A stretch of DNA of 64,000 nt from the NCBI RefSeq assembly GCF_003790525.1, contig NZ_CP033635.1. One strand, 5' to 3'. Numbering within the stretch: position 1 is the first letter of the stretch; each line of letters begins with the position of its first letter. Under the pieces are notes generated by a model. The model ran no database searches, was not told where the DNA came from, and worked only from the letters and a program-made list of their open reading frames with translations. Below, piece after piece: positions 19,887 to 53,245 of this stretch. The DNA is from Escherichia coli. Its GTDB lineage: Bacteria > Pseudomonadota > Gammaproteobacteria > Enterobacterales > Enterobacteriaceae. The translations under genes were made by a program, and so were the position numbers.

Positions 19887-20172
19887 ACTTTATCTCCGTA
19901 TTCAATAATTGAGTAAAACAATCCCCCGCGCTTATATAAGCGCGTTGATATTTTTAATTATTAACAAGCAACATCATGCTAATACAGACATACAAGGAGA
20001 TCATCTCTCTTTGCCTGTTTTTTATTATTTCAGGAGTGTAAACACATTTTCCGTCTCCCTGGCTAATAACCACATTGGCATTTATGGAGCACATCACAAT
20101 ATTTCAATACCATTAAAGCACTGCATCAAAATGAAACACTGCGATATTAAAATTCTTTCAATTTGAAAAGCA

Positions 20173-22122
20173 TCAATCTGCATGCTCAACATTTGGATAG
20201 AGATTATAGATTTTAAGCTTGCGCCATAATGTTGTACGACCAATTTTTAATACTTCAGCTGCTTTAGTTAGATTCCATTCGCAGACACGACATGTATGCT
20301 CAATAGCTTGCATCTCCAATTCTGCCAGTGAAGTAAGATGAGGGATATCATCGTCGCCACTACTGTTATTTTGTCGGATATCCAGAGGAATATTCTCTAA
20401 TCCGAGGACAAGCCGATTGCAGTTAATAAATACCTTCTCCATTCGATTTTTGAACTCGGAGATGTTTCCAGGCCAACGGTACTCAAGCAGAACTGAATTT
20501 GCGTCAGGCGTGATTGTCATTTTTTTTCGAGTGCGCTCCTGATACTTATCAATAATATCGTCAATCATTTGCTTGAGATCTTCACGACGTTTGCGCAATG
20601 GCGGAATTTCAATTTCATTCATGGAGATCTCATAATATAGCTGTCGGCTAAAAGCCCCTTGTTGCACGTACTCACGTAAAGAACTACTGGTACATGTAAT
20701 CAGGCGAAAGCGTACGGGGATCAAACGATGACTGTCTGAGCGAGTAACAAGCCCCGTTTTCAATACTTTCAATAAAACACTCTGAACTTCCCCTGATAGA
20801 TATTCGACTTTATCCAGATATAAGGTGCCATTATGAGCCAGTTCAAATTTCGATGGCGAAGGACCAACATCAGAGCCAAGAAGTTCGTGTAAGATATTTT
20901 CTGGTGATAGCATCTGACAATCTACAGAAATAAATGGCCCATCACGTTGCTCGCTCTCATTATGTATTGCCATCGCCAAACTCAATTTTCCCACACCTTC
21001 TTCGCCATTGATCAAAATCGGAGAGATGGATTTAATTGCCCGGCGAGCGATAAGTAATACCTGCTTCATACCACCTGAAGCCGCATGTAAACTGTCAAAG
21101 GTAAAATTTGCATTAGTGCTTATTTGCTGTTGGGCTATTTTCCTGATTTTGTCTAATGGATGAAGAAAAAGCAAAAACGAACCATCGCTTAACGGGCGAA
21201 GGGTAACCATAAGTTCAATAAATTCGCCACGGCATTCGAGGACAATTTGCTTTTGCGATAGTTTGTTCCGTTGTGTAATTGCCTCATTCAAAATCGGCGG
21301 AAATACGAATCCTTTTCGGATGTTCTGACCAATTAAACTTTCTTTATCAATATTCAGTAGTGTTTGTGCTTGAGAATTAACCATCGTAATTAAAGAATGA
21401 CTATTCCAACAAATAAAACCGTCATCCATGCATTCAATCACAGCATTATGCTGGCAAAGTACTTTGTTTATTAACTTTTGTTCATTCTCAATATAGATAT
21501 AATTAGCGATTTCTGTTGCACATGAATATGATGTTTTTAATTTAACAAGCTCGGCGGTAGTTTCAATTATACATACAATGTATCCATGGATATTACCATA
21601 ATAATCAATGACCGGAGCAGCGCTCATCGCATAACAATGTAGCTGTTCACTAAAATGTTCTGCTCCTTCCAGTTGTGTATATAAATTTGTTTCCCGACAA
21701 AGACTATATACATTGGTTCCAATGCCATCTTCGGCCCATGACATACCAGATTCAATTCCTAACTCTCGCAATTGACTGGAATAATCGCCTGCTGCATTCA
21801 ACGATAGAACCCAGCCGTGTGGGTCAATGATCAAAAATGCCAACCGGTCGTCACCAGCCAGGGTGAAATGGTCTTCAACAACTCTTTGTGAAATTCTAAT
21901 AAACTCTTCGTTACGAGAAAAAATCGTCTGCAATGTTTGCCCGGAAGCTTTGACAGGCGTGTTCCAGTGGCGAGGGTCACAATGCTTGAGACATTTTTGC
22001 CATGACCTCAGCATCACATGATTAGTCGAATTTGTCGCGACCCAACCATGCTTAACAAACATTTTCCATTTATTTTTTAGATCATTATGATACGACTCTT
22101 TATTCATTATAATAATATCCAT
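20173..22122 (-). CDS. DhaR/TyrR-type transcriptional activator (GAF/PAS + AAA+ domain lacking GAFTGA + C-terminal HTH)
   Basis: 649 aa; Walker A GEEGVGK, AIHNESE, FSRQLYY and C-terminal IGRTTLWRK motifs match the DhaR pattern I recall; no GAFTGA motif, so probably sigma-70-dependent. Confidence 0.75.
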   Translation of the reverse strand: MDIIIMNKESYHNDLKNKWKMFVKHGWVATNSTNHVMLRSWQKCLKHCDPRHWNTPVKASGQTLQTIFSRNEEFIRISQRVVEDHFTLAGDDRLAFLIIDPHGWVLSLNAAGDYSSQLRELGIESGMSWAEDGIGTNVYSLCRETNLYTQLEGAEHFSEQLHCYAMSAAPVIDYYGNIHGYIVCIIETTAELVKLKTSYSCATEIANYIYIENEQKLINKVLCQHNAVIECMDDGFICWNSHSLITMVNSQAQTLLNIDKESLIGQNIRKGFVFPPILNEAITQRNKLSQKQIVLECRGEFIELMVTLRPLSDGSFLLFLHPLDKIRKIAQQQISTNANFTFDSLHAASGGMKQVLLIARRAIKSISPILINGEEGVGKLSLAMAIHNESEQRDGPFISVDCQMLSPENILHELLGSDVGPSPSKFELAHNGTLYLDKVEYLSGEVQSVLLKVLKTGLVTRSDSHRLIPVRFRLITCTSSSLREYVQQGAFSRQLYYEISMNEIEIPPLRKRREDLKQMIDDIIDKYQERTRKKMTITPDANSVLLEYRWPGNISEFKNRMEKVFINCNRLVLGLENIPLDIRQNNSSGDDDIPHLTSLAELEMQAIEHTCRVCEWNLTKAAEVLKIGRTTLWRKLKIYNLYPNVEHAD

Positions 22123-22500
22123 TCAAGTCATTTTCAGAACTTGTATCAGAATGCTATGCCAGTAAGCTTGATCAAACGCAATAATATCTAGTCTGGATCA
22201 TTACAAAAACAGACCTTATCAACAATGTAACCATACATACATTAGAAAGAATAACCGTTAAAGCAATAAAAAACGAATAATACATTAGATAAATTTTAAA
22301 AATGCCAACAACATCTGAAATCTTTGCGTTTGATATTTATCATTATTCAAACTGAAACAACACAGGCATACGAGTTGTTTCACTGTGAAACAGTGCAGCG
22401 AAATTTGTTCTGCCCTTTTATTTCCTCAAAGATATTTCGTCGTTAAATTCCAAAATTGACTGACTATTCAACTCAGCGTAAATATCAGGAGAAATAATGT

Positions 22501-24240
22501 ATGGCGAGGATGCGTGCAATCGAAGCTGCAGTAGAAATACTGAAAAAAGAAGGCATTAGCGTTGCTTTTGGTGTACCCGGCGCAGCAATCAACCCACTCT
22601 ATGCCGCGATGAAAAAATCAGGCGGTATTGATCATATTCTGGCCCGTCATGTTGAGGGCGCCTCGCATATGGCTGAAGGTTACACCCGCAGTCAGAATGG
22701 CAATATTGGCGTGTGTATTGGCACATCAGGCCCTGCGGGCACTGATATGATTACGGGGCTTTATTCCGCCTCCGCGGATTCCATTCCTATTCTCTGCATT
22801 ACTGGTCAAGCTCCCGTAGGAAAACTTCATAAAGAAGATTTCCAGGCCGTCGATATTGAGGCTATCGCCACGCCAGTAACCAAAATGGCTCGCACAATTC
22901 TCGAAGCGGGTCAGTTGCCGGGGATATTCCAGAAAGCCTTCTGGGAAATGCGTTCAGGCCGCCCTGGCCCGGTTCTTTTAGATCTCCCTTTTGATGTTCA
23001 GATGACCGAAATTGAGTTTGATATCGATCTCTATCAGCCACTAACCCCCTGGCAACCTCAGGCAACACGGGCCCAGGCCGTACGCGCATTAGAAATGCTA
23101 AATGGCGCCGAAAAGCCCGTCATCATCGCTGGCGGTGGCATTATTAACGCCAAAGCGAGTGAATTGTTGCGTGAGTTTGTCGAGTTAACTGGCGTTCCCG
23201 TCATTCAAACCTTACGCGGTTGGGGCGCATTATCAGATGATCATCCCCTAATGATTGGTCGCATGGGATGTCAGGCGGGTCATCGCTATGGTAACGCCAG
23301 TTATCTGGCCTCCGATTTTGTTTTTGGTATCGGTAACCGTTGGGCAAACCGTCATACCGGAGCCATTGAGACCTACACCGAAGGCCGCAAATTCATTCAT
23401 GTTGATATCGAACCTGCACAAATTGGCCGGATATTTGCGCCGGATCTGGGCATTGTTTCTGATGCTGAAAGCGCCTTAACGCTATTTATTCAGGTCGCCC
23501 GTGATATGAAGTCACGTGGAGAACTGAAAGACCGCAGTCGCTGGATTGCCGAATGTGCCGAGCGTAAACGCACAATGCTTCGTCGTTCAGACTTTGACTG
23601 CAATCCAATTAAACCGCAGCGCGTGTATCACGAAATGAATAAGGTTTTCGGACCGGAGACACGCTATATTTCGACAATTGGTCTGGCGCAAATCGCCGCA
23701 AACCAATTTTTACATGTTTACCGCCCACGCCACTGGATTAATGCCTGTCAGGCTGGGCCGCTAGGCTGGACAATGCCCGCAGCACTGGGCGCGGTAAAAG
23801 CTGATCCATCTGTTCCCGTTGTGGCAATATCCGGTGATTACGATTTTCAATTCTTGATTGAAGAATTAGCCGTCGGCGCACAATTTAATCTTCCGTATAT
23901 CCATATTTTACTTAACAACGCTTATCTTGGTTTGATTCGTCAATCACAACGTGCATTTGATATTGATTATTGCGTTCAACTGTCATTTGAAAATATTAAT
24001 GCTCCAGAAATTAATGGTTATGGCGTTGATCATAAAGCTGTGGTTGAAGGATTAGGATGTAAAGCGATTCGCGTATTCGCATCACAGGATATTGCGCCTG
24101 CACTGCAAGAAGCCCAGCGTTTGCGTGACGAATTTCACGTACCTGTTGTTGTGGAAATTATTGCTGAACGCGTGACTAATATCGCTATGGGACCTGACAT
24201 TAATAAAGTCACAGAATTTGAAGAAATTCTCGATTTATAA
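22501..24240 (+). CDS. Glyoxylate carboligase-like ThDP enzyme (Gcl paralog)
   Basis: 579 aa; N-terminus ([41 protein letters not shown]) is near-identical in pattern to Gcl; ATG 22501 lies 10 nt after AGGAG. Confidence 0.8.
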
Positions 24241-24252
24241 GGAAACAGGATT

Positions 24253-25035
24253 ATGGCAAAGTTTGCAGCAAATTTATCTATGCTCTTTACCGAGTATCCA
24301 TTTATTGAACGTTTTGCACAGGCAAGTCACGCAGGATTCCACGGCGTTGAGTATCTTTTCCCCTATGACTTTTCTGCAGATGAGTTGGTTTCGCAACTGC
24401 ATCAACATAATCTGACGCAGGTTCTGTTTAATCTTCCTGCGGGTAACTGGCAAGAGGGTGAACGGGGTATTGCATGTCATCCTGGTCGGGCAAAAGAATT
24501 TCAGGAGAGCGTTTCCAGGGCAATAGAGTATGCATTGGCCCTTAATTGTTCACAAGTTAATTGCCTTGCAGGAAAACATCCAGGTGGTTATTCGCATGAA
24601 CAATGTCATGAAACACTGGTCGAAAATTTGCGCTATGCGGTAGATAAATTGGCTTCTCATGGGATAAAGTTAGTTCTGGAAGCCATTAATACAAAAGATA
24701 TTCCCGGTTTTTTTGTTAACAATACCAGACAAGCTCTCAATATTATTCATGATGTAAAACATCCTGATTTGCGCTACCAATACGATATTTATCATATGCA
24801 AATCATGGAAGGGAATATTGCTACAACAATCAAAAACAACCTGAATAACATTGGACATATTCAATTAGCCGATAACCCTGGGCGTCATGAACCAGGGACG
24901 GGAGAAATTAATTACCCGTGGTTGTTAAATTATATAGACCAGATTGGTTATCAGGGATGGATTGGTTGCGAATATATTCCATCTACGACAACGACTGAAA
25001 GTCTACGCTGGCTAAAAAACGAGACTCAATTTTAA
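24253..25035 (+). CDS. Hydroxypyruvate isomerase-like (Hyi family, TIM-barrel sugar isomerase)
   Basis: 260 aa, directly downstream of the gcl-like gene as in the gcl-hyi-glxR arrangement. Confidence 0.75.
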   Translation: MAKFAANLSMLFTEYPFIERFAQASHAGFHGVEYLFPYDFSADELVSQLHQHNLTQVLFNLPAGNWQEGERGIACHPGRAKEFQESVSRAIEYALALNCSQVNCLAGKHPGGYSHEQCHETLVENLRYAVDKLASHGIKLVLEAINTKDIPGFFVNNTRQALNIIHDVKHPDLRYQYDIYHMQIMEGNIATTIKNNLNNIGHIQLADNPGRHEPGTGEINYPWLLNYIDQIGYQGWIGCEYIPSTTTTESLRWLKNETQF

Positions 25036-25052
25036 TCCCTGAGGTATTTATC

Positions 25053-25940
25053 ATGAATATTGGATTTATCGGCACCGGCATAATGGGTAAGCCGATGGCT
25101 TATAATTTACAACAAGCCGGACATACTCTTTATTTTTCAGCGCATTTTGAACCTGCACCGCAAGAGCTTATTGGTGAACGTGGCATTGTTTGCTCTACAC
25201 CGCGTGAAGTCGCGCAGGAGTGTGAGGTCATCATCACCATGCTCCCTGATACCCCACATGTTGAGGATGTTCTTTTTCATCCCAACTATGGCGTAATACA
25301 CGGTTTAAGCCACGGGAAAATTGTCATTGATATGAGTTCAATTTCCCCGGTTGCCACCAAAGCATTTGCACAACGTATTATCGCGGGAGGCGCGGAATAT
25401 ATCGATGCGCCCGTCTCTGGCGGTGAAGTTGGCGCGAAAGCCGGGACGCTTTCCATTATGGTTGGCGGATGTGAAGAGGTTTATTTACAGATCAAACCGA
25501 TTCTGGAATTGATGGGTAAAAATATCACTCTGGTCGGGAACGTCGGTGATGGTCAAACGTGCAAAGTCGCTAACCAAATTATTGTTGCACTGAATATTGA
25601 AGCGGTGGCTGAAGCCCTGCTCTTTGCCAGTAAATCAGGTGCCGATCCCGCCCGCGTACGTGAAGCTCTGATGGGGGGTTTTGCTTCCTCTCGTGTATTG
25701 GAAGTTCATGGCGAACGGATGATCAAAGGGACATTCGCCCCTGGTTTTCGAATTAGCCTGCATCAAAAAGATCTGAATCTGGCACTGGAGAATGCTCGCC
25801 TGTTGAATACCCCGCTTCCTAACACGGCTATGACGCAACAATTATTTAGCGCCTGCGCCGCGCTCGGTGGTAAAGAGTGGGATCATTCTGCGTTAATTCG
25901 GGCGCTTGAAACACAAGCCAATTTCACTATCCGTAAATAA
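25053..25940 (+). CDS. Tartronate semialdehyde reductase-like (beta-hydroxyacid dehydrogenase family)
   Basis: 295 aa; N-terminal NAD-binding GFIGTGIMG; third gene of the gcl-like operon. Confidence 0.8.
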   Translation: MNIGFIGTGIMGKPMAYNLQQAGHTLYFSAHFEPAPQELIGERGIVCSTPREVAQECEVIITMLPDTPHVEDVLFHPNYGVIHGLSHGKIVIDMSSISPVATKAFAQRIIAGGAEYIDAPVSGGEVGAKAGTLSIMVGGCEEVYLQIKPILELMGKNITLVGNVGDGQTCKVANQIIVALNIEAVAEALLFASKSGADPARVREALMGGFASSRVLEVHGERMIKGTFAPGFRISLHQKDLNLALENARLLNTPLPNTAMTQQLFSACAALGGKEWDHSALIRALETQANFTIRK

Positions 25941-26014
25941 TGAATTAAGGGAACCACCGGTTCCCTTCGTTCACTCGTTGCCCTGCCCCATTCCCCTATT
26001 TTGAGAGACCTGCT

Positions 26015-27157
26015 ATGAAGATAGTTATCTCCCCCGACTCCTTTAAAGAATGCCTTCCCGCATGGAAAGTCGCCGAAGCGCTGGCAACCGGCTGGCGCAA
26101 GGTCCTGCCTGGCAGCCAACTGGTGTGTTTGCCCGTGGCTGACGGCGGCGAAGGCACGCTCGAAACACTCATTCATGCGACTGACGGTACGTTTTACACT
26201 AAAAAAGTCACCGGACCGCTTGGCGAATCAATACATGCGCAATACGGTATTTTAGGCAACCAAACCACCGCAGTGATAGAACTGGCACAAGCTTCAGGGC
26301 TGGAACTGGTTTCTCCTGTCCAGCGTTCTCCCCTTTATACGACGTCGTTTGGCACTGGCGAACTTATTCTCGCCGCCCTGGAACACAATATTGATACCGT
26401 TATTCTATGCCTGGGTGGCAGTGCTACAAATGATGGCGGTATTGGGTTGATGTCGGCACTTGGCGCATCGTTTACAGACGCCGAAGGGCTATCAGTCTCT
26501 GTTAATGGGATGGGGCTGGCGGCAATTCACCACATTGACTTACAGCACCTCGATCCACGATTGAAAAATGTGAAATTTATTGCAGCCTGTGATGTCACCA
26601 ACCCACTAACCGGCGATAACGGCGCGACTCGGGTTTTTGCTCAACAAAAAGGGGCCAGTGCTGACAACCTTGAGCAACTGGAACAGGGAATGAAAAACTA
26701 TGCCCGTTGCATCTACCGTTGTTGTGGTAAAGAAGTCGATACGATACCCGGTTCTGGGGCGGCTGGCGGCGTTGGCGCGGCCTTGATGGCTTTTCTCGAT
26801 GCTCGCTTACAACCGGGTATTTCGCTCGTGCTGGAAGCGATTCAATATACCCAACATTTAAAATATGCAGCATTGGCGATTGTCGGTGAAGGTAAATTAG
26901 ACCGTCAAAGCCTGAATGGCAAAGCACCTGTGGGGGCGGCCAAAATCGCCCAGATGATGGGCGTTCCGGTTATCGCAATTGCCGGGTATATCGATGATCA
27001 ACTTGATTTGAATGAGTTACGCCAGTGTGGAATCGAAGCCTGTTTTTCCGTCGTCAATGGTCCTTGTGATTTACCCACCGCGCTGAGTCAGGGGGAAAAT
27101 AATTTAATTCGTCTCGGAGAAAATTTGGCAGGGTATTTTCATGCAGTCCTGAGTTAA
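26015..27157 (+). CDS. Glycerate kinase (GlxK/GarK family)
   Basis: 380 aa; starts MKIVISPDSFKE, typical of the glycerate kinase family. Confidence 0.8.
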   Translation: MKIVISPDSFKECLPAWKVAEALATGWRKVLPGSQLVCLPVADGGEGTLETLIHATDGTFYTKKVTGPLGESIHAQYGILGNQTTAVIELAQASGLELVSPVQRSPLYTTSFGTGELILAALEHNIDTVILCLGGSATNDGGIGLMSALGASFTDAEGLSVSVNGMGLAAIHHIDLQHLDPRLKNVKFIAACDVTNPLTGDNGATRVFAQQKGASADNLEQLEQGMKNYARCIYRCCGKEVDTIPGSGAAGGVGAALMAFLDARLQPGISLVLEAIQYTQHLKYAALAIVGEGKLDRQSLNGKAPVGAAKIAQMMGVPVIAIAGYIDDQLDLNELRQCGIEACFSVVNGPCDLPTALSQGENNLIRLGENLAGYFHAVLS

Positions 27158-27212: not shown

Positions 27213-28754
27213 TTATTCATCTCTCGCGGTTTTCTCTTCAGCCGCAAGCTGTGTCAAAAAACTCTTCAATAAAATAAACACTACGCCGCAAAGCGGTAGT
27301 CCGGCCAGGATAGAGACCGTTTGTAGCGGTTGCAGACTTTGCGCATCAAGAAGATAGAGTGTGATTGCGACGATTCCGGTCATAATCAACCAAAATGCCA
27401 CGTTCCAGAATGCCGGTTCACTCTCACTATCTGCCCGTTTTTGCGTCGCAAAACCGAGGGCATAACCCACAGTACAGTGTCCGGTAATATATGAAATTAA
27501 TGCTATAGCCCCAAAAGCAACCAAAAACACCTGACTTGCGGGTAGCTGCTCCAGTAAACGAGAAACGACAACGCCTCGCCCTTGTTCGTTAAGTATGGGA
27601 ACAAAATCGATGACATGAGTTGTCTGCAACGATAAGCCGAAATTAGCCAGTACCATGTAAAAAACCATGCATCCCAATGAACCTGCCAGAGTTCCACATA
27701 CAATCAATTGCCGGATCGTCCTTCCTTTTGAAATACGGGCGATAAATAAACCGAATGGGATGGCATACACGACCCACCATGAAAAATAAAATACGGTCCA
27801 CATCTGTGGAAATCCGCTACGACCAATAGCATCGGTACTTAAACTCATCGCTACAAAATTTTGCAGCATCAGGCCGAAACCATCAATTGATTGGTTAAGT
27901 ATAAAAGCTGTCGGTCCACAAATCAGTATTGCCAGTAGCATAAAAATATCGGCACGAATATTCCAGTTACTGGCCCATGCCACACCTTTTTTAAGTCCAA
28001 AAAAGAGAATTAATAATGGCACTAGCGTCCAGATAAAAATAACCATGACATTGATAAACTGCCCGGCAGGATCCAGATGGAACACATGGCAAAATACGGC
28101 AGAAATCATCGGCGTTCCCAGCGCCAGAGACGTTACCGCGCCGCCGAGCAAACCAAACATGTAGAAAAAATTCACACAATGCCCGCAAAAACCATCAGCA
28201 CGTGCCCCCAGACACCCACGGCATAAATCACTGACCTTTAATGAGTTCGTTTTCTTAACATGCATAAACCAACCAATGGGAACGGCACAAATCAGATACC
28301 ATGCCCATGCGGACGGCCCCCAATGGAACATGCCATAAGCAGAGGCCCAACGAGCAGCCTGAGCGCTTCCTGCTGTCGCGCCAAAAGGCGGTTGCTGAAT
28401 GATCCAAATCCACTCTACAGAGGCCAGATATAACAAGCTGCCCCCCGTTCCAGAAGTAAAAATAAGTCCAAGCCAGGTTAACAAGCTGAAGTCAGGCTTT
28501 TCTCCCGACTGACCTAACAAGATATCGCCATAACGTGAGAAGGCCAGCCACAGACAACAAAGTACAACCAGAAAAGTCATGACCAGAAAAATCCCGCCCA
28601 TTTCCCAGGTTAAAAAATGATGTATTTTATTTATATACCGGCTGGTATCTTGTGGATATATCGTCAAACACAGAATGATTACCGCAATAAATAATATTGC
28701 TGGGATAAACACATTCAGTTCAATCAAAGAAAAGCGTTTTTTTAAATATTGCAT
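27213..28754 (-). CDS. BCCT-family transporter (betaine/carnitine/choline type)
   Basis: 513 aa from ATG 28754 (AGGAG upstream); contains the BCCT signature-like stretch WTVFYFSWWVVYAIPFGLFIARISKGRTIRQ. Confidence 0.7.
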   Translation of the reverse strand: MQYLKKRFSLIELNVFIPAILFIAVIILCLTIYPQDTSRYINKIHHFLTWEMGGIFLVMTFLVVLCCLWLAFSRYGDILLGQSGEKPDFSLLTWLGLIFTSGTGGSLLYLASVEWIWIIQQPPFGATAGSAQAARWASAYGMFHWGPSAWAWYLICAVPIGWFMHVKKTNSLKVSDLCRGCLGARADGFCGHCVNFFYMFGLLGGAVTSLALGTPMISAVFCHVFHLDPAGQFINVMVIFIWTLVPLLILFFGLKKGVAWASNWNIRADIFMLLAILICGPTAFILNQSIDGFGLMLQNFVAMSLSTDAIGRSGFPQMWTVFYFSWWVVYAIPFGLFIARISKGRTIRQLIVCGTLAGSLGCMVFYMVLANFGLSLQTTHVIDFVPILNEQGRGVVVSRLLEQLPASQVFLVAFGAIALISYITGHCTVGYALGFATQKRADSESEPAFWNVAFWLIMTGIVAITLYLLDAQSLQPLQTVSILAGLPLCGVVFILLKSFLTQLAAEEKTARDE

Positions 28755-28777
28755 TTCAGTCTCCTGAATGTTTTCAT

Positions 28778-29002
28778 TCAATGAGGACGAATATTTCGCC
28801 GTTCCTTTTTCATGTGTTGCAATTGTCGGGAAAGGCGTAAAGAAAAAAAGGCGCAAATAAGTGAAAGTACCGCAATACAATACAGAGCTAAACCACACTG
28901 ATGCTGTTGCAGCATGAACAGGAATATCCCCAAAAAGAGGCCGCAGAGAACTGTGGTTATCCAGTAATTGGCACTTAAGTGCTCCAGGTCATCATCCCTC
29001 AT
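28778..29002 (-). CDS. Small two-span membrane protein upstream of the BCCT transporter
   Basis: 74 aa from ATG 29002, with AGGAG 7 nt upstream; two hydrophobic segments; 23 nt upstream of the BCCT start on the same strand. Confidence 0.35.
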   Translation of the reverse strand: MRDDDLEHLSANYWITTVLCGLFLGIFLFMLQQHQCGLALYCIAVLSLICAFFSLRLSRQLQHMKKERRNIRPH

Positions 29003-29054
29003 GGTCTTTCTCCTGCAAGGCGCAGAGAGGCTTTCAGCTCTCTGCGCCTTGTTG

Positions 29055-30419
29055 TTATGCCAGACGTACGCCCTGCTGTTGCAGCGTGTTTTGCAAATCA
29101 GGAATAGCAACCTGACGCACGGTGCAATGTTGCTGTAGCGAAACCACGGCGGCAGTGCCTGCGGCCTCACCGGTAACGGCACAACACATCATGTTGCGCA
29201 TAGAAGTATGTGCAACTACGCCTGCGGAAATACAGCGACCGGCGACCAAAAGGTTCTCCACTTTTTGTGGCACCAGACAGCCATAGGGGATCTGAAAGAA
29301 ACGCCCGGTCGTTGGCAAAATGAGATAACCGGAACCATCAATAAATTCCGGGAAAATCCCTACACTGTCCGAACAACGCCCCTGATTAAGGACGTAATCA
29401 TCAGCAATACGTATTTCCCCCTCAATAAGCCGTGATTCGCGTGTACCCAGCGTGGCGCCAAAATTGCGTAACCGTACATTTTCAAAGCCCGGAACATAAT
29501 GGCGTAGAGCGTCAATTGCCCATAATGCTTGCTGCCTTCCGGCGATTTCTGCTTTGGTTAAATCGAAGACATCGGTACAGTCAAAACCAAAGGCGTACAC
29601 CATATTCATCTGAAACGCTTCGCCGCTTTCAGAAAAGGTTGACCAGGTTCCGGCAATCGCCTGGGCGTCGCCTGGAATCACACCATCCTGCTGCGCCCGG
29701 GTAAAAATATCCTCCATATAAGGGCTAAACATCTGGTCTTCTTTGCCCGTGGTTTGAATCGTCCAGTTTTTTCCCCAATCCGCGTAGGTCGGCTTAAGTT
29801 CTTCCGCAACAAAACGGTTAAAGCGCGCCACATCGACACCTGCGCAACTGAACATCACGGTGACGCCCATCAGTTGGTCCTTTCCCCGTTTCGTCCAGGG
29901 CGCGCCTGCACGAGCAGCAATATCAGCATCCCCCGTGCAATCGACGATTCTTTTCGCCAGAATTGCCCCTCGTCCTGATTTGTTCTCGACAATAACACCG
30001 CATAACGTATCCCCTTCCTTGATCACATCCACAACCCAGGAGTGATATAACGGCTCAACGCCAGCTTCCGTTATCATCTGATCGGCAACAACTTTAAATC
30101 CTTCAGTATCTATAACTTCGCTAATTGACTGAGGTTCTGGTCGCGTGAAGCCCAATGCTCGCGCGCGGCCTTCATATTCACGACAAATCCCTTCACAATC
30201 TTCCGTCCCCGGATGGCGATACCAGGCAAAACTTTCCACACCAACCTGCGTCAATACGCCGCCTAGTGAGCCGTAACGCTCAACAATCATGGTTCTGGCA
30301 CCTAGCCGCCCCGCCGCTATCGCCGCCGTTAATCCTGCCGGACCGCCCCCGATAACCAGAACGTCCGTTTGTGCAATGACTGGCGTTTGCCGTGCACTTT
30401 CATTAATCATGTCCACCAT
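29055..30419 (-). CDS. FAD-dependent oxidoreductase (paralog 2)
   Basis: Start chosen at ATG 30419 (GGGGGAA upstream); the track ORF starts at TTG 30449, overlapping the upstream MFS gene; VLVIGGGPAGLTAAIAAGRLGARTMIVERYGSLGG fold; paralog of 18516-19886. Confidence 0.7.
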   Translation of the reverse strand: MVDMINESARQTPVIAQTDVLVIGGGPAGLTAAIAAGRLGARTMIVERYGSLGGVLTQVGVESFAWYRHPGTEDCEGICREYEGRARALGFTRPEPQSISEVIDTEGFKVVADQMITEAGVEPLYHSWVVDVIKEGDTLCGVIVENKSGRGAILAKRIVDCTGDADIAARAGAPWTKRGKDQLMGVTVMFSCAGVDVARFNRFVAEELKPTYADWGKNWTIQTTGKEDQMFSPYMEDIFTRAQQDGVIPGDAQAIAGTWSTFSESGEAFQMNMVYAFGFDCTDVFDLTKAEIAGRQQALWAIDALRHYVPGFENVRLRNFGATLGTRESRLIEGEIRIADDYVLNQGRCSDSVGIFPEFIDGSGYLILPTTGRFFQIPYGCLVPQKVENLLVAGRCISAGVVAHTSMRNMMCCAVTGEAAGTAAVVSLQQHCTVRQVAIPDLQNTLQQQGVRLA

Positions 30420-30436
30420 TGGTTCCCCCATCAGAT

Positions 30437-31705
30437 TCAGGATGCGCAATCCGCATTGTTTTCAGTGATTTCATTGACTTGATTTTTACTTTTACGATTC
30501 ACACGCTGGAGGACCAGTGCGGCGATAAGGCCGATGAATGCGCAAACCAACATGAACAGGAAAACATCCTGATAACCGGCAATACCCGGTTTGCGGTCGA
30601 CCATATTGCCCACCATCGTGTAGCAGTAGATTTCCGGGAAATAGGTCAGTAAAGAGATCAGACCCGCAGCAGTCCCTGTGACTTTTGCCGGGATCCGAAT
30701 CTCATCAATAATTGAGAAGAACACGGCATTCGCAGAGTAAATAAACACGCCCAACGCAACCATATTCGCCAGCGCAATAGTGACGTAGCGCGACTCACCG
30801 GGCAGGAAGAAATAAACGGTAGTAAAGACAATCATGCCGATAAAGGCGTAAATCATAAAACGCGTGCGTGACGCACAGCGGTCGGCCAGTTGTCCGCCAA
30901 TTAATCCCCCCATCGCAAATAACACATAGGCGCGAAGAATACTGGCAACTGCCACTTCCGATTCGCCCATATGCAGGATCTGCGTGAGATACGGCGTGAC
31001 CATGCCAAAGCCGATATAAATTGACCACATACAAAAGGTCACAACACCTGCCAGCCAAACCGTCGGCATTTTCAGCACGAATGCCATATCTGCCAGACGG
31101 AAATTCGCTTTATCTTCGCTGTGCGTTTCATCCTGACAAACAAACCAGGCTAAAACACCGGCCAGAATAGTCACTACGGAATAAAAAATAATTGTCGCCC
31201 GTAAACCATCAACACCTTCGCCAAATTTGGCAAATACCGGCACGGAAAGAAATCCCAGTACAATGGAGGTTAATCCCTTACCCAGAAACCAGTAACCGTA
31301 TAAGCGACCTTGTTCTTCGCTGGTTCCCAGGGTACGAATAATTCGCACACACACGGCCCAAAACGTAAATACGGTTGTAACAGCCCAAAGTGCATGTAAC
31401 AAACAGATCATAGTATACGAGGGGAAGGTCGCATAATAAAAACCACTTATCCCGGTGGAAATTAATGAAAAGGTCATTAATTTACGTGCAGAAAATCTAT
31501 CGGCAGCCCAACCGCCAGGTAGATATAATAAAAAGTTCACCAGACCATAGGCTGTCATTAGAAAACCAAGTTCAGCATTAGTCGCTCCTGTAGCCTGCTG
31601 CATCGCGTCGTAATAGGTTTCCCGTAAATAAGGCAATTTATATATTGCACTTCCGGCAATACCACATAACGCCAGCGTGATCCAACGTTTCCAGTTACTG
31701 GTCAT
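30437..31705 (-). CDS. MFS transporter
   Basis: 422 aa, 12-span hydrophobic profile; immediately upstream of FAD oxidoreductase paralog 2 on the same strand. Confidence 0.75.
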   Translation of the reverse strand: MTSNWKRWITLALCGIAGSAIYKLPYLRETYYDAMQQATGATNAELGFLMTAYGLVNFLLYLPGGWAADRFSARKLMTFSLISTGISGFYYATFPSYTMICLLHALWAVTTVFTFWAVCVRIIRTLGTSEEQGRLYGYWFLGKGLTSIVLGFLSVPVFAKFGEGVDGLRATIIFYSVVTILAGVLAWFVCQDETHSEDKANFRLADMAFVLKMPTVWLAGVVTFCMWSIYIGFGMVTPYLTQILHMGESEVAVASILRAYVLFAMGGLIGGQLADRCASRTRFMIYAFIGMIVFTTVYFFLPGESRYVTIALANMVALGVFIYSANAVFFSIIDEIRIPAKVTGTAAGLISLLTYFPEIYCYTMVGNMVDRKPGIAGYQDVFLFMLVCAFIGLIAALVLQRVNRKSKNQVNEITENNADCAS

Positions 31706-31772
31706 ATTTATTCCCGAATGAAGTATTTAAAATGACACCAACGGCCTGCTTTGCACAGGCCGTATTATTTTT

Positions 31773-32855
31773 TTAAAGTCCCAAATGATGTGCAGTTAAA
31801 ATTGCGCAAAGAACGTCCTGCGCTGTTACTACGAATGGCATATTATGGATAGTTTCCCCTTCAGCAGTCGCTGCTTCAGCCACTGCCCGTAATTTATCTT
31901 TATTAATTTCCTTCACGCCTAACATATGAAGATTTGTCGGCAGACCAACGCTATGGCAGAAATTGAGTACGGTTTCAATTTCCTCCTGTGGTGCGTTTTC
32001 CAGTACGAGCTGTACCAGGACGCCAAATGCCACTTTTTCACCGTGGTAGCAATGATGGCATTCCTCCAGTTGCGTCATGCCGTTATGAATGGCATGAGCT
32101 GCCGCCAGGCCGCTACTTTCAAATCCAATGCCGCTAAGATAGGTATTAGCTTCGATAATATTCTCTACCGCTTTGGTGCTAACACCTTGTTCAACCGCGA
32201 CTTTTGCCTTATAGCCATCTTCCAGTAGCGTGGTATAACAGAGTCGGGCAATAGCCAGTGCCGCCAGTGTCGACGCCCCACCTGCCATTGTGGCTTTTCC
32301 TGACGCCTGATTGGCTCTCGCCTCAAACCAGGTTGACAATGCATCTCCCATACCGGCCACCAGCAGACGCACTGGCGCGGCTGAAATGACGCCAGTATCC
32401 ATAATCACCATATCCGGGTTTTTCGGGAAAAACAGATATTCGCTAAACTGGCCTTCCGGGGTGTAAATTACTGCCAGAGAACTGGTTGGCGCATCTGTGG
32501 AAGCAATTGTCGGCACCACCACTACCGGAATTTTTTGGTAATACGCTACGGCTTTTGCCGTATCCAACGTTTTACCGCCGCCAATACCAATAACGACATT
32601 ATATTTACGCTGATTAAATTTCTCACGAATTCGAGAAATTTCATTTTGCGAGCATTCACCGCAAAAAACATCAAGATCCGCAATAATGTTTTCTCTTGCA
32701 AAGCTCTGGCTTACTCTGTCACCAACCAGACCGGTCACAAATTCATCTGCAATAATTAATGGTTCTGTTCCCAAACTCGCCGCATATGTAGCAATATTAT
32801 CCAGAGAACCATTTCCCTGGATATATTTAGCCGGACTTATAATAATCTTATCCAT
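31773..32855 (-). CDS. Glycerol dehydrogenase-like (iron-containing alcohol dehydrogenase family, GldA paralog)
   Basis: 360 aa; GIGGGKTLDTAKA and GFESSGLAAAHAIHNG motifs as in GldA. Confidence 0.8.
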   Translation of the reverse strand: MDKIIISPAKYIQGNGSLDNIATYAASLGTEPLIIADEFVTGLVGDRVSQSFARENIIADLDVFCGECSQNEISRIREKFNQRKYNVVIGIGGGKTLDTAKAVAYYQKIPVVVVPTIASTDAPTSSLAVIYTPEGQFSEYLFFPKNPDMVIMDTGVISAAPVRLLVAGMGDALSTWFEARANQASGKATMAGGASTLAALAIARLCYTTLLEDGYKAKVAVEQGVSTKAVENIIEANTYLSGIGFESSGLAAAHAIHNGMTQLEECHHCYHGEKVAFGVLVQLVLENAPQEEIETVLNFCHSVGLPTNLHMLGVKEINKDKLRAVAEAATAEGETIHNMPFVVTAQDVLCAILTAHHLGL

Positions 32856-33174
32856 ATCATTCCTCGCGTAACTTGTTTTGCTTCACTGTTAACCTACTCG
32901 TTGCATCCAGTGGCGGCAAACATTTCATTCGCGAAAAATTATGTTTTATGATCGCGCTGTAAAAAACATCATCTGCAGATGATAATAAAAAACACTTTTC
33001 ATGCCTTAATCACAATATATCAATATCCATACTGGTCCCTTTTCATTTTGAAACAACACCATGAATTAACTGTTTCATTATGAATCTTATTATCGTGCGA
33101 TTTGTTTTATTGCGGTTGGAGAATTAATCTCGCAAACATATTTAGCGCGATTTACGTAATTTATCAGAACAGGA

Positions 33175-34245
33175 ATGACTATGAAGAAATTAATTAACCA
33201 GATTGATTCTGTTGTCACAGAACAAATGGAAGGACTCATCGCCACCTGGCCACACCTGCAGGCAAATTACGCGCCCCGATATGTGTGGTGCAAACAAACC
33301 GATAATGCAGTGGCGCTGATTTCAGGCGGCGGCTCAGGCCATGAACCACTGCATGCAGGTTTTGTCGGTATGGGAATGTTAACCGGTGCATGTCCTGGTG
33401 AAATCTTCACATCGCCCACGCCAGATCAAATGATCGAATGTGCCAAAGCGGTTGATAATGGTTCTGGCGTTCTGTTTTTCATCAAAAATTACACAGGCGA
33501 TATTCTGAATTTCGAAACGGCAGTCGAGATGTTACACGAAGAAGGCATCGCCGTTGGGACCGTCATTATTGATGATGATGTAGCGGTAAAAGATAGCCTG
33601 TATACAGCCGGACGTCGCGGTGTTGCGGGTACAGTTTTTGTTGAAAAGATTGTCGGTGCGGCTGCACTTCAGGGATATAACCTGGGGCAGTGCGAGCAAC
33701 TTGGCAAAGATGTTAACAATGCCACCCGTTCTTTTGGCATCGCACTGTCAGCCTGTACGGTTCCCGCCGCGGGAAAACCCTCATTTGAACTGGCTGATAA
33801 TGAAATCGAATTTGGTGTCGGGATCCACGGTGAACCCGGCATTGAACGCCGCACTTTGCAAGATCTGAACACTTTAATCGACAGCGTGATAGCGCAATTA
33901 CTGGATAATACCCCCTGGCGACGCACATTACGCCATTGGGATCGCCATGCGGGGGGATGGATTGACGCATCATCAATGAATGAGTCATTCGATCAAAATG
34001 CCGAATATATTGTGTTAATTAACGGACTTGGCAGCACGCCTGAATCAGAGTTATATGGTGTGGCCAGGGTATTTATGTGCGCCGCACAGCGCCAGGGAAT
34101 TAAAATTAGCCGCCAGTTGGTCGGTAATTATTGTACATCATTAGATATGGCCGGATTTTCCATCAGCCTGCTGAAATGTACCCCAGAGTTTTTGCAACTT
34201 TGGGATGCCCCGGTCAATACGCCAGCGCTTCGTTGGGGATGTTAA
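33175..34245 (+). CDS. Dihydroxyacetone kinase subunit DhaK (paralog)
   Basis: 356 aa; extensive match to recalled E. coli DhaK (LISGGGSGHEP, GEIFTSPTPD, IKNYTGDILNFETA, VIDDDVAVKDSLYTAGRRGVA). Confidence 0.85.
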   Translation: MTMKKLINQIDSVVTEQMEGLIATWPHLQANYAPRYVWCKQTDNAVALISGGGSGHEPLHAGFVGMGMLTGACPGEIFTSPTPDQMIECAKAVDNGSGVLFFIKNYTGDILNFETAVEMLHEEGIAVGTVIIDDDVAVKDSLYTAGRRGVAGTVFVEKIVGAAALQGYNLGQCEQLGKDVNNATRSFGIALSACTVPAAGKPSFELADNEIEFGVGIHGEPGIERRTLQDLNTLIDSVIAQLLDNTPWRRTLRHWDRHAGGWIDASSMNESFDQNAEYIVLINGLGSTPESELYGVARVFMCAAQRQGIKISRQLVGNYCTSLDMAGFSISLLKCTPEFLQLWDAPVNTPALRWGC

Positions 34246-34257
34246 TAAGGACATTAT

Positions 34258-34890
34258 ATGAAAATTCAAAACAAACATGTTATTGCCTGGCTGGAGAGTT
34301 GTGCTGCACATCTCACTGAACAACAAGATTTTCTAACCGCACTTGACAGAGATATTGGTGATGCCGACCACGGCCTCAATATGAATCGTGGTTTCAGTGC
34401 AGTGAAAGCGACGTTGCCCGACATTGAACGTCAGCATATTGGCAATATTCTTAAAAATACTGGCATGAAACTACTTTCCAGCGTTGGCGGTGCCAGTGGT
34501 CCTCTTTACGGCACATTATTTATTCGCGCTTCTGCGGCAGTGGGAGCCAGAACAGAATTAACTCTGGAAGAGTGGCTGGCGTGTCTGGAAGAAGGGATTG
34601 CAGGCGTTATCGCACGAGGAAAAGCAGAACAAGGGGATAAAACACTGTGTGATGTCTGGGTTCCAGTTCTCCACGAAGCCAAAAAGAACCTGCAAGCCGG
34701 AATGTCGCCTTCCCTTCTGCTGAATACGATGGTGCAAGATGCGGCAACAGCAGTCGATAACACCATCAATATGCAGGCGAAAAAAGGACGTGCCAGTTAT
34801 CTCGGCGCTCGCAGTGTGGGCCATCAGGATCCAGGCGCGACCTCCTCCTGGCTGATGATTAAGGCTATGCAGGAAGGATTCGCGGGATAA
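34258..34890 (+). CDS. Dihydroxyacetone kinase ADP-binding subunit DhaL (paralog)
   Basis: 210 aa; LDREIGDADHGLNMNRGF and SSVGGASGPLYGT motifs as in DhaL. Confidence 0.85.
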   Translation: MKIQNKHVIAWLESCAAHLTEQQDFLTALDRDIGDADHGLNMNRGFSAVKATLPDIERQHIGNILKNTGMKLLSSVGGASGPLYGTLFIRASAAVGARTELTLEEWLACLEEGIAGVIARGKAEQGDKTLCDVWVPVLHEAKKNLQAGMSPSLLLNTMVQDAATAVDNTINMQAKKGRASYLGARSVGHQDPGATSSWLMIKAMQEGFAG

Positions 34891-34893
34891 ATT

Positions 34894-37275
34894 ATGGTTG
34901 CCATTGTTATTGTTTCTCATAGTCTACGTCTCGCCCAGGGGGTTGAGGAATTAGCACTACAGATGTCTGGAGGGGACGTTCCTCTGGCCATTGCTGCAGG
35001 TATTGATGATCCGCAAAATCCGATTGGCACTGATGCTATTGCCATTATGTCTGCGATTGAATCGGTCTGGTCACCGGATGGCGTTCTGGTACTCATGGAT
35101 ATGGGCAGTGCGCTGCTTAGTACCGAGATGGCGCTGGAGCTGCTTTCTGAAGAGCAAAGAAGTGCAATTTATCTGCTCGCCGCCCCTGTAGTGGAAGGTG
35201 CCATGTCAGCGGTAACGTCTGCCGCAGCGGGGCTTTCGGTGACGGAGATTATCGCTGAAGTGGATCTTGCGCTGTGTGCTAAACAGCAGCAACTCACGCC
35301 ATCCTCAACTGCAGGCGAGGTTATTCCAGCAATATCACCAATCAATCATTCCGGTGAATGGCAAACTTTTTGCTGGACGATACGTAATCCCCACGGCATT
35401 CATGCTCGTCCGGCAGCCAGCATCCTGAAAGTATCCGCACAATATTCGGCAAACATTATCGTCATCAAAGGCGATAAACGCGCCAGCACCCGCAGTCTCA
35501 ACGAACTGGCAATGCTGGGCGTCCGCTGTGGCGATGAAATCATCTTCCAGGCCGAAGGCACCGATGCCAGTGACGCTCTCAAGGCAATTGAAACGTTGGC
35601 GAAAAATCATTTTGGTGAAGCTCACCTGCTCGCTTCTTCAGAGATTCCGCTAACGGAAACGCCGGTGGTCAGCGCCCCTGTCGATGGCGCAATATCAGGC
35701 TTGTCAGTACAAAATGGTATCGCTATTGGTCCTGTTAAATGGTTTACCTGCGAACGACCAGAAATTACGCAGCGCACCGTCGATTCTCCGCAAGAAGAGC
35801 TGTCGCGAATCGAGTCTGCTATCGACATTGTTGTTTGTGAACTTGCCGATAAAGCGGCAGGCCCTGAAGGCGATATTTTTGCCGCCCATAAAATGATGCT
35901 TGAAGATCCAAAGATTAACCGGCAATTACAGCAACGTCTGGCAAAGGGCAAACAGGCGGAATTCGCATGGTTAGAAGTCATGCAGGCATTAGCAGAGCAA
36001 TATTGTCAGGCGGAAACACTGTATTTACGTGAACGCGAGGCAGATATCCGTGACCTTACACGTCAGGTACTGAACCAGCTTTGCGGGGGAAGTGAACAAC
36101 ACTTTATTACTACCGCGCCCTGCATTTTGTTAGCCAACGATCTGTTGCCATCACAGATAACCAGCCTGAATAAAGCACACATTCTTGGCATTTGTCTTCA
36201 TAATGGCGGAACAACTTCACATACAGCGATCCTTGCCAGAGCAATGGGTATTCCTGCCATTGTGAAGGCAGCTATTACCCCGCAAAACGTCCGCGATAAC
36301 GACACGGTCATTCTTGATGGTGAAACAGGCCGTTTGTGGCTACAGCCGGATGAGGTCACCCGCCTGGATTTACTGCAACGCGCCGAAGCATGGCGGCAAC
36401 AAAGGGATCGTCAGTTAGCTGATGCCATGCAGCCCGCTGTCACGCAAGGTGGGCGAAAAATCAGCGTGCTGGCGAATATTGGTGACCTGCAAGATATTGA
36501 GGCTGCGCTATCTCACGGGGCTGAGGGCGTGGGTTTACTGCGCACAGAGTTTTTATTCCATGAGTCTGCAACATTACCCGATGAAGAAGAGCAGTTTCGC
36601 GTGTATTGTTCTGTTGCTCAGGCTTTTGGCGATAAACCAGTCACCATCCGCACTCTGGATATTGGCGGTGACAAGCCATTACCTTCGTACCCTTTACCCG
36701 CAGAGGACAACCCGTTCCTGGGACTTCGCGGTATCCGGTTGTGCCTGGCGCATCCGCAAATATTTATTCCGCAATTACGCGCACTTCTCCGGGCCGGGAA
36801 AGAATACCCAACGCTGCAAATTATGCTGCCGATGGTTTCAACGCTCGAGGAGGTCAACGCCGTCAAAACGCTGATACAAACGCAGGCAAAACTGCTGGGA
36901 CTTACTGCAGAAAATCTTCCGGCGCTGGGAATTATGATTGAGGTTCCTGCTGCAGTCATGATTGCAGAAAAATTAGCCAGTGAAGTCGATTTCTTTTCCA
37001 TCGGCACCAACGATCTGACGCAATATATTATGGCGGCAGACAGAGGAAATAGCACCGTCGCGGAACTGGTCGATTATCGTAATGACGCGGTGATTAACGC
37101 TATTGCTATGGTGTGTCAGGCCGGACGTAATAATGAAATTCCGGTCAGTATGTGCGGCGAAATGGCTGGAGATACCCAGCAAACAGCACGACTGCTCACC
37201 ATGGGGATTGATAAGCTCAGTGCCAGTCCGTCCCGGCTTCCGGCCTTGAAAGCAGCAATCAGAACCTCCCACTAA
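34894..37275 (+). CDS. DhaM-like multiphosphoryl transfer protein: EIIA(Man-like) + HPr-like + complete Enzyme I
   Basis: 793 aa; N-terminus MVAIVIVSHS ... AAGIDDPQNPIGTDA matches DhaM; HPr-like segment with GIHARPAA; EI phosphohistidine region GGTTSHTAILARAMGIPAIV and C-terminal PEP-utilising region ending FFSIGTNDLTQY. Confidence 0.85.
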   Translation: MVAIVIVSHSLRLAQGVEELALQMSGGDVPLAIAAGIDDPQNPIGTDAIAIMSAIESVWSPDGVLVLMDMGSALLSTEMALELLSEEQRSAIYLLAAPVVEGAMSAVTSAAAGLSVTEIIAEVDLALCAKQQQLTPSSTAGEVIPAISPINHSGEWQTFCWTIRNPHGIHARPAASILKVSAQYSANIIVIKGDKRASTRSLNELAMLGVRCGDEIIFQAEGTDASDALKAIETLAKNHFGEAHLLASSEIPLTETPVVSAPVDGAISGLSVQNGIAIGPVKWFTCERPEITQRTVDSPQEELSRIESAIDIVVCELADKAAGPEGDIFAAHKMMLEDPKINRQLQQRLAKGKQAEFAWLEVMQALAEQYCQAETLYLREREADIRDLTRQVLNQLCGGSEQHFITTAPCILLANDLLPSQITSLNKAHILGICLHNGGTTSHTAILARAMGIPAIVKAAITPQNVRDNDTVILDGETGRLWLQPDEVTRLDLLQRAEAWRQQRDRQLADAMQPAVTQGGRKISVLANIGDLQDIEAALSHGAEGVGLLRTEFLFHESATLPDEEEQFRVYCSVAQAFGDKPVTIRTLDIGGDKPLPSYPLPAEDNPFLGLRGIRLCLAHPQIFIPQLRALLRAGKEYPTLQIMLPMVSTLEEVNAVKTLIQTQAKLLGLTAENLPALGIMIEVPAAVMIAEKLASEVDFFSIGTNDLTQYIMAADRGNSTVAELVDYRNDAVINAIAMVCQAGRNNEIPVSMCGEMAGDTQQTARLLTMGIDKLSASPSRLPALKAAIRTSH

Positions 37276-51810: not shown

Positions 51811-52124
51811 TTGGGGCCATTTTGACTCATAGAGGAAAGCATCGCGCACAAACTTTTTCAGTTTATTTGTTGGCTTAATATTCTATTGTTATCTTTATTT
51901 ATAGATTTTTATATTGCATGAGGTGGTTTTTGGAGAGAAGAATGAGGAAGATGCATCGAGCCACAGAAACGTTAGCTTTACATATAGCGGAGGTGATGTG
52001 AAATTAATTTACAAGAGAAATAATTTACATATCAAACAGTTAGATGCTTTTTGTCGTTTTTTGATATTTTTATGCTTGAGAAAAAATACGTAACTTATTT
52101 ATGATATGGACAGTTTGGCCCCAA
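51811..52124. promoter_or_regulatory. fimS: fimS invertible element (314 bp) bounded by 9 bp inverted repeats TTGGGGCCA / TGGCCCCAA
   Basis: Inverted repeats at 51811-51819 and 52116-52124 are exactly 314 bp apart (outer edges), between fimE and fimA. Confidence 0.8.
52076..52106 (+). promoter_or_regulatory. fimA promoter (TTGAGA - 18 bp - TATGATA) inside fimS, pointing toward fimE (phase OFF)
   Basis: -35 TTGAGA at 52076-52081 and -10 TATGATA at 52100-52106 read on the + strand; they abut the fimE-proximal inverted repeat, while fimA is on the - strand at the other end. Confidence 0.55.
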
Positions 52125-52171
52125 TTGTCTTGTATTTATTTGTTTTTTAACTTTATTATCAATAAGTTAAA

Positions 52172-52768: not shown

Positions 52769-53245
52769 AATAGTAGTACTCCTGACTGAGATATATTTGA
52801 ATGAATACCTATAGGAAACCTCAATCGGTCAAAATTAGCCCAATAGATAAAAAGATAACCATACACGAAGTGATGTGGCTATCAGTCAATTACATTAAAT
52901 ATCATACAAAAATAAAATATCACCGATGTGACAACATCTATTTTCATTGATTTGATTCAATATAACAATAGATTGCAGAAGATTAACTTCCAGTTGCTTA
53001 AAAAATAAAGAAAAAAGTGTGGAAACAGGAGAATTTAAGTGATGTGTAAATTTATGAATGATTTTGTTTATTTATTTTGAAGAACATAAACCATTGTATT
53101 TTGTATGGATATGGTTAACTTAATGTTTATTATGATAATTAAGAATTACACTTACAATAACATCAATTAATAAATGGTTAATCATTTTTGATATATCGTA
53201 AGAATAATGTAGTTTTTAACACCATCCATGGTATCTCAACTATCT

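Follow-up and report, generated by a model that had tools for sequence, protein, structure and literature searches.

Does a regulator of the DhaR family that is encoded beside a glyoxylate operon control genes in both halves of the island that carries it? The question is raised by an open reading frame at positions 20173-22122 (minus strand) of a 64-kb stretch of Escherichia coli DNA, the window of this analysis. An initial annotation had read it as a DhaR-like activator that might couple a glyoxylate and oxidoreductase module to dhaKLM-like genes about 11 kb away. The reading frame is genuine and encodes 649 amino acids when counted from the first ATG. A comparison of the annotation of strain SMS-3-5 with the published operon map identified it as ibeR of the published GimA locus. 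The observation is thus confirmed, and its interpretation is partly supported: DhaR-type operators lie in front of every GimA operon, which suggests from sequence that IbeR switches the whole virulence and metabolic island, the invasion gene ibeA included, on and off together.

IbeR is DhaR-like and not TyrR- or PhhR-like. The NCBIfam DhaR equivalog model NF008485 matches residues 15-647 with 985.8 bits at a cut-off of 551, and Pfam resolves the protein into a weak GAF domain followed by PAS, Sigma54_activat, AAA_lid and HTH_8. Residues 36-334 align to the solved sensor domain of DhaR (4LRX chain C, residues 15-317; also 4LRY/4LRZ) with E = 5e-40. A genomic link to dhaK and dhaL, as expected for the family, is also present, as these genes lie in the same island at 11 kb and dhaK is preceded by an operator pair. 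The Prokaryotic Genome Annotation Pipeline (PGAP) already labels IbeR as DhaR. TyrR/PhhR-type regulators resemble IbeR in using an enhancer-binding-type AAA+ domain without sigma-54, but this identity was rejected, as IbeR has no ACT domain in Pfam and with 144.8 bits stays far under the TyrR cut-off of 576. The initial annotation had named a better match to TyrR or PhhR than to DhaR as grounds for refutation, and the scores point the other way. For the translation start PGAP chose the ATG at 22107, which gives a protein of 644 amino acids (20173..22107, minus strand) with a GAF-like/PAS sensor, an AAA+ domain without GAFTGA and a Fis-type helix-turn-helix. This shorter form is favoured because, besides the PGAP call, the Pluralibacter orthologue lacks the upstream ATG. 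The gene is indeed divergent from gcl-hyi-glxR-glxK; however, the spacer of 378 bp given by the initial annotation holds only for the first ATG and becomes 393 bp with the ATG at 22107.

The predicted independence from sigma-54 is supported by the sequence. In comparison to NtrC1 the GAFTGA stretch is deleted in IbeR (ELLGSDVGP----SPSK---FELAHNG) and the Walker B motif reads DK in place of DE, so that a sigma-54-dependent enhancer-binding protein of the NtrC/PspF type was rejected as an identity. A scan for -24/-12 promoters gave 42 matches in the window where 43 are expected; within the island no match is intergenic, and the control regions contain no such promoter. The absence of GAFTGA is, however, not peculiar to this copy: the loss of the motif and the degenerate Walker B are common to all eight DhaR-family proteins aligned. 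DhaR is known to act at a sigma-70 promoter without the sigma-54 motif and under the control of DhaK and DhaL (PMC10084136, citing Bachler 2005), and the missing GAFTGA is therefore a family trait and not a quirk of IbeR. The recognition helix IGRTTLWRK of the Fis-type helix-turn-helix is invariant across all lineages aligned, K-12 DhaR included, which accounts for the operator that they have in common.

The spacer between dhaR and dhaK of E. coli K-12 contains the perfect palindrome TGTTTCAtagTGAAACA and an imperfect second copy 31 bp off. When the window was searched for TGTTTCAnnnTGAAACA with up to two mismatches, five matches were found against 0.31 expected, and none of 100 shuffles gave five. 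All five are situated within GimA spacers, at 22343, 22376 (a perfect match), 33039, 33071 and 20122, and the last one, in the spacer from ibeR to ibeA, has a three-mismatch partner at 20154. Every GimA control region thus carries one pair of 17-bp palindromes of the form TGTTTCA-N3-TGAAACA, 32-33 bp or three helical turns apart, as at the dhaR-dhaK promoter of K-12; pairs spaced by 31-33 bp did not occur in randomised sequence. In front of gcl the distal box TTATTCAAACTGAAACA (22343..22359) is the weak half of the pair and is conserved in alignment, and the proximal box TGTTTCACTGTGAAACA (22376..22392) is a perfect palindrome centred 117 bp upstream of the gcl ATG. Between gldA and dhaK the box on the gldA side, CTTTTCATTTTGAAACA, occupies 33039..33055 and the box on the dhaK side, TGTTTCATTATGAATCT, 33071..33087, centred 102 bp before the start codon of dhaK. 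The ibeA-distal box TCTTTCAATTTGAAAAG (20154..20170) directly follows the ibeR stop codon, and the ibeA-proximal box TGCATCAAAATGAAACA (20122..20138) is centred 244 bp upstream of the ibeA ATG.

To avoid circularity, the training set of a weight matrix was restricted to dhaK-proximal pairs from canonical loci (K-12, Pantoea, Klebsiella, Rahnella) and from Vibrio. With this matrix the pairs in the three spacers score 33.8, 30.5 and 23.5, whereas the next best pair in the window reaches 7.6. There are exactly three outlier pairs in the 64 kb, at the divergent ibeR-gcl and gldA-dhaK spacers and between ibeR and ibeA, and together they cover all four operons. As a negative control, the gcl promoter of the K-12 core genome was inspected and has no such box. 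The initial annotation had proposed a search for shared inverted-repeat operators in 22123-22500 and 32856-33174. A DhaR-type pair is present in both regions and in the ibeR-ibeA spacer as well, and this supports the coupling of the two island halves by IbeR.

The arrangement is also found outside of E. coli. A scan of species-representative genomes gave 7 loci, a number that sets a lower bound on the taxonomic breadth. The regulator adjoins gcl in every GimA-type locus, and this placement is not chance. It is divergent from gcl in E. coli, in two Pluralibacter and in Citrobacter sp. NCU1, and two Serratia species have it co-linear with gcl-hyi-glxR. The Pluralibacter locus has the layout of E. 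coli minus gldA, is inserted at a different chromosomal site and carries operator pairs between gcl and ibeR (one box perfect), between dhaK and the MFS gene and between ibeR and ibeA. The locus of Citrobacter sp. NCU1 is compact, with gldA divergent from dhaK-dhaL-dhaM/Enzyme I, followed by glxK-glxR-hyi-gcl in the opposite orientation and the regulator divergent from gcl. It has no ibeA, ibeT or cgl genes, and its operator pairs are located at gldA-dhaK and at gcl-regulator. These Citrobacter boxes, which are of the type CGTTTCA...GGAACG, escaped the scan for pairs by mismatches but were picked up with the weight matrix, whose training had been independent. Both Serratia loci run from gcl, hyi and glxR through the regulator to the BCCT transporter and FAD oxidoreductase genes, all in one direction, with pairs upstream of gcl and of the BCCT gene whose distances to the start codons differ from those in E. 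coli, Pluralibacter and Citrobacter. Serratia microhaemolytica in addition possesses a stand-alone dhaL (L010 15476-16144), without adjacent dhaK or dhaM, that is divergent from the island MFS gene with an operator pair in between. This DhaL may have been retained purely as a regulatory partner.

The distances from the centre of the start-codon-proximal box to the ATG agree closely among E. coli, P. lignolyticus and Citrobacter, with 117, 115 and 117 bp for gcl and 102, 103 and 105 bp for dhaK (125 bp for K-12 dhaK). For ibeA, which Citrobacter lacks, they are 244 and 243 bp in the first two. When three species are aligned, the spacers prove to be diverged except for the boxes, which stand out as their best-conserved blocks. 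A Pluralibacter genome from a metagenome has an insertion of about 125 bp between the ibeR stop codon and the ibeA pair, and both the pair and the leader behind it are intact. In the B2-type allele of the avian pathogenic E. coli (APEC) strain IMT5155 five of the six boxes are identical; the sixth changes from TGAAACA to TGGAACA, which stays within the consensus, and the neighbouring 60 bp are heavily substituted.

GimA-positive strains almost certainly carry two DhaR systems, since the canonical dhaK-dhaR region is found in 5385 of 5426 E. coli genomes (99%). IbeR is 33% identical to K-12 DhaR (b1201), and identity to the K-12 counterparts is 59% for the island DhaK and 55% for the island DhaL. 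The closest relatives of IbeR, at 76-81% identity, are those of Pluralibacter (formerly [Enterobacter] lignolyticus), which possesses a canonical DhaR too, followed by Citrobacter sp. NCU1 with 62%, by Vibrio, Photobacterium, Salinivibrio and the two Serratia with 40-47%, and by the canonical enterobacterial DhaRs with about 33%. IbeR and K-12 DhaR share the domain order, the deleted GAFTGA loop, the degenerate Walker B, the recognition helix, the pairs of 17-bp palindromes about 100-125 bp upstream of dhaK and the linkage to dhaK, dhaL and dhaM. They differ in that IbeR lies 11 kb from dhaK and is divergent from gcl, and in that K-12 DhaR serves one operon, whereas the predicted IbeR regulon comprises four, with a glyoxylate pathway, transporters and two FAD oxidoreductases. 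The GimA partner DhaM, in contrast to that of K-12, includes a complete Enzyme I. Outside the enterics, the DhaR of Vibrionaceae is the nearest lineage. Its locus resembles GimA in the DhaM-Enzyme I fusion, in gldA being divergent from dhaK and in operator pairs 33 bp apart. However, it has no gcl operon, BCCT or FAD-oxidoreductase genes or ibeA, and its regulator adjoins the dha genes. The statement that DhaR is encoded divergently from dhaKLM is correct for E. coli K-12 only and fails for Klebsiella, Pantoea and Vibrio, where dhaK is divergent from a glycerol dehydrogenase gene as in GimA.

We consider it probable that IbeR, the diverged DhaR paralogue carried by GimA, binds the operator pairs, co-regulates the whole island and, by analogy, is gated by the island DhaK and DhaL. 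Of these elements a DhaR-type regulon spanning the island has good in silico support, and the gating, as judged from the K-12 system, is plausible. IbeR would bind the pairs and, from sigma-70 promoters, co-regulate gcl-hyi-glxR-glxK, dhaKL-dhaM/Enzyme I, gldA-MFS-FAD oxidoreductase-BCCT and ibeA-ibeT, so that GimA would form one regulon. As in K-12 DhaR, the ADP-bound island DhaL would be the co-activator of IbeR during substrate phosphorylation and free DhaK its antagonist, and flux through the triose kinase would thereby gate the glyoxylate pathway, the transporters, the oxidoreductases and the virulence-associated ibeA. Gating is favoured by the intact catalytic motifs of the island kinase (GGGSGHEP and GIHGEPG in DhaK, DxxxxDxD in DhaL and the three histidines of DhaM), by a sensor constraint as in canonical DhaRs (the ratio of sensor to AAA+ identity is about 0.8 both in the IbeR lineage and among the canonical proteins) and by the dhaL retained in the Serratia island. 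Deletion of ibeR in the avian pathogenic strain DE205B significantly raised the ibeA transcript (PMC4359115). This fits the model, because an operator-bound DhaR in a non-activating state predicts such a rise. More tentatively, and at somewhat less than even chances in our estimate, GimA could be a single trigger-enzyme regulon. DhaK and DhaL would then report triose flux to IbeR, and one pair per control region would switch the second glyoxylate-to-glycerate pathway, the BCCT/MFS/FAD module and ibeA-ibeT, which is associated with invasion and oxidative stress. In such a regulon cross-talk with the core dhaKLM operon would be expected, because the recognition helix is shared.

Several points weigh against control of the island by IbeR under DhaK/DhaL gating. 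The K-12 operator was deduced here from conservation across canonical loci, the ibeA pair, at a distance of 244 bp from its ATG, is the weakest of the three (12.7 and 10.8 bits), and a sigma-70 consensus scan of the spacers gave nothing above chance, so that no transcription start was placed. The searchable literature contains no binding or expression experiment on the GimA metabolic operons, and the published targets are stress and virulence genes only. These targets underlie the published view that IbeR is mainly a global, RpoS-like regulator of the stationary phase and of stress outside GimA (katE, sodC, osmC, ompA and others), with the island boxes incidental or autoregulatory. In favour of this view, the ibeR deletion causes stress sensitivity and altered transcripts of katE, sodC, osmC, ompA, aatA and luxS (PMC4359115). 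However, IbeR has no similarity to sigma factors and is a DhaR-family protein of the enhancer-binding type, direct binding at stress genes is not shown in the literature, and the operator pairs are concentrated at the island promoters and conserved with them in five other species. The global effects could also be indirect, caused by a mis-expressed oxidoreductase and carbon-metabolism island, and we regard a mainly RpoS-like role as improbable.

The sensor raises a different objection. It is the most diverged region of IbeR, with 26% (GAF-like) and 31% (PAS) identity to K-12 DhaR, and its partner proteins or ligand could therefore differ. IbeR might control the island via the operators and yet sense a small molecule through its GAF/PAS domains, e.g., a metabolite of the glyoxylate or C3 pathway or a substrate of the BCCT/FAD-oxidoreductase module, with DhaK and DhaL uninvolved. 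The regulator is always found with gcl and not always with dhaK, as S. microhaemolytica has dhaL only and Serratia sp. DD3 has neither dhaK nor dhaL within the sequence fetched. On the other hand, the sensor aligns end to end with the solved DhaK/DhaL-binding domain of DhaR and is, in relative terms, as constrained as that of canonical DhaRs, and a cognate dhaKL or dhaL is present in the island of 8 of the 9 examined species with a regulator of the IbeR lineage. Sensing of a small molecule alone is in our view unlikely, though less so than the RpoS-like role. The canonical DhaR, finally, could occupy the GimA boxes because it has the same recognition helix and is encoded in 99% of E. coli genomes. 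That the boxes are mainly served by this core-genome protein, with IbeR redundant or decaying, would agree with the identical operator consensus of both lineages. It is nevertheless very improbable, as ibeR is intact and protein-identical in SMS-3-5 and IMT5155 and stays beside gcl across genera, and as removing it changes ibeA expression, among other phenotypes, in a strain where canonical dhaR is presumably present.

Both ibeR and GimA are already known as objects, and the locus is not a new one. Huang 2001 reportedly described the gene, where it lies and how the island is laid out, and ibeR mutants are said to have been studied by Chi 2009 and Wang 2015. In the literature IbeR is treated as an 'RpoS-like' regulator of ibeA/ibeT and of stress genes, and DhaR-type operators at metabolic operons are not described there. 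This label is kept up to 2026, when one paper states that the contribution of the GimA regulon to pathogenesis 'remains elusive'. The searchable literature, of which several primary papers were out of reach, yielded no text that presents IbeR as a paralogue of DhaR and places operators at the metabolic operons, so that a prior description is possible. The new part is the result of the operator check together with the wiring, and its interest is modest since the locus is known. The gene ibeA is in wide use as a marker of virulence in neonatal-meningitis and avian pathogenic E. coli. Recognition of its regulator as a paralogue of DhaR, with operators conserved at all island promoters, provides a concrete wiring diagram for a known locus and names a likely inducing condition, namely dihydroxyacetone- or glycerol-type flux through the kinase of the island itself. 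If true, this would be a DhaR regulon expanded from a single operon to an island of four, and if GimA also works as a trigger-enzyme regulon, C2/C3 carbon metabolism would be linked to a classical determinant of meningitis and avian virulence.

The window is E. coli DNA, and positions 17000-37500 are 100% identical to SMS-3-5 and other strains; this full stretch occurs in only 245 of 5426 complete E. coli genomes, and the complete island in 245-246 of them. Published GimA is an island of about 20.3 kb in the yjiD-yjiE interval with the four operons ptnIPKC, cglDTEC, gcxKRCI and ibeRAT (PMC2878320; PMC4359115). SMS-3-5 and IMT5155 agree with this definition, having about 20 kb from yjiE/hypT to yjiD/iraD and the operons ptn, cgl, gcx and ibeRAT. 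In the RefSeq annotation of SMS-3-5 hypT (yjiE) and iraD (yjiD) flank the island. Read from hypT, nhaC, ibeA and 'dhaR' are on the minus strand, gcl, hyi and the genes for 2-hydroxy-3-oxopropionate reductase and glycerate kinase on the plus strand, the genes for the BCCT transporter, an FAD oxidoreductase, an MFS transporter and glycerol dehydrogenase on the minus strand and dhaK, dhaL and 'ptsP' on the plus strand, before iraD. The GimA of RS218/E44, APEC O1, IMT5155 and DE205B has the same gene, flanks and four-operon layout, without a sequence difference for IbeR. The IbeR WP accession is shared by SMS-3-5 (phylogroup F) and APEC IMT5155 (B2), which gives identity at the protein level. Outside GimA, positions 2001-6000 and 52001-56000 of the window have a GC content of 0.38-0.42 compared with about 0.50 elsewhere, and may be other horizontally acquired segments.

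The neighbours of ibeR were described correctly at the outset. Downstream on the same strand, in the unit 17098..19886, follow the FAD-dependent oxidoreductase gene ibeA (18516-19886) and ibeT (17098-18501), which encodes an NhaC-type antiporter. The gcl-hyi-glxR-glxK operon (GimA3, the gcx genes; 22501..27157, plus strand) encodes a second, paralogous glyoxylate-to-glycerate pathway, whose Gcl is 70% identical to K-12 Gcl. GimA2 (the cgl genes; 27213..32855, minus strand) consists of gldA (31773-32855), the MFS transporter gene (30437-31705), cglE for an FAD oxidoreductase (29055-30419), an open reading frame of 74 amino acids (28778-29002) and the BCCT transporter gene (27213-28754). GimA1 (the ptn genes; 33181..37275, plus strand) is divergent from gldA, starts 11.06 kb from ibeR and comprises dhaK (33181-34245), dhaL (34258-34890) and dhaM fused to a complete Enzyme I (34894-37275), the presumed sensor or trigger enzymes.

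The DhaM-Enzyme I fusion has EIIA-like and HPr-like domains and the N, mobile and C domains of phosphoenolpyruvate (PEP)-utilising enzymes, and with 793 amino acids compares to 472 in K-12. It is common to the Vibrio, Citrobacter and Pluralibacter loci and is named 'ptsP' by PGAP. The island kinase could take its phosphate from PEP and bypass the general PtsI and HPr. The 74-amino-acid reading frame, located between the FAD oxidoreductase and BCCT genes, is a predicted membrane protein (MRDDDLEHLSANYWITTVLCGLF...) that is unannotated in SMS-3-5 and IMT5155; a 74-amino-acid gene is called at the equivalent place in P. lignolyticus. The BCCT transporter is nearest to the carnitine/gamma-butyrobetaine antiporter model, under its cut-off, and the extra Serratia genes gave no clue to the substrate of the BCCT/MFS/FAD-oxidoreductase genes.

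IbeA and the FAD oxidoreductase CglE are paralogues with 51% identity over the full length. Since ibeA is missing from Citrobacter and Serratia, and both genes from Vibrio, ibeA seems to be a later duplicate that gained an operator pair of its own. The region of about 240 nucleotides between this pair and the ibeA start contains two hairpins, at 19927-19944 and 19993-20013. One of them is a perfect palindrome of 18 bp, CGCGCTTATATAAGCGCG, situated about 40 bp ahead of the ATG and partly kept in Pluralibacter together with the blocks ATAAAAAACA and TCTGTATTAGCATG. An Rfam scan of the island, including this long leader, gave no match at E <= 0.1; the hairpin may be a leader, attenuator or promoter element. 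Near the start of ibeR, at 22160-22180, the block AAGCTTGATCAAACGCAAT (with the palindrome TTGATCAA and a GATC) is shared by E. coli and Pluralibacter, and in part by Citrobacter; it could represent the promoter of ibeR or a site bound by a second factor.

The ibeR-ibeA spacer is identical between the SMS-3-5 and IMT5155 alleles. For the ibeR-gcl spacer the SMS-3-5 type is found in about 20 genomes only, compared with 226 of a type that is 95-99% identical. In the gldA-dhaK spacer 31 of 325 positions differ between SMS-3-5 (phylogroup F) and IMT5155 (B2), and these differences are clustered at 32974-33035, just upstream of the operator pair.

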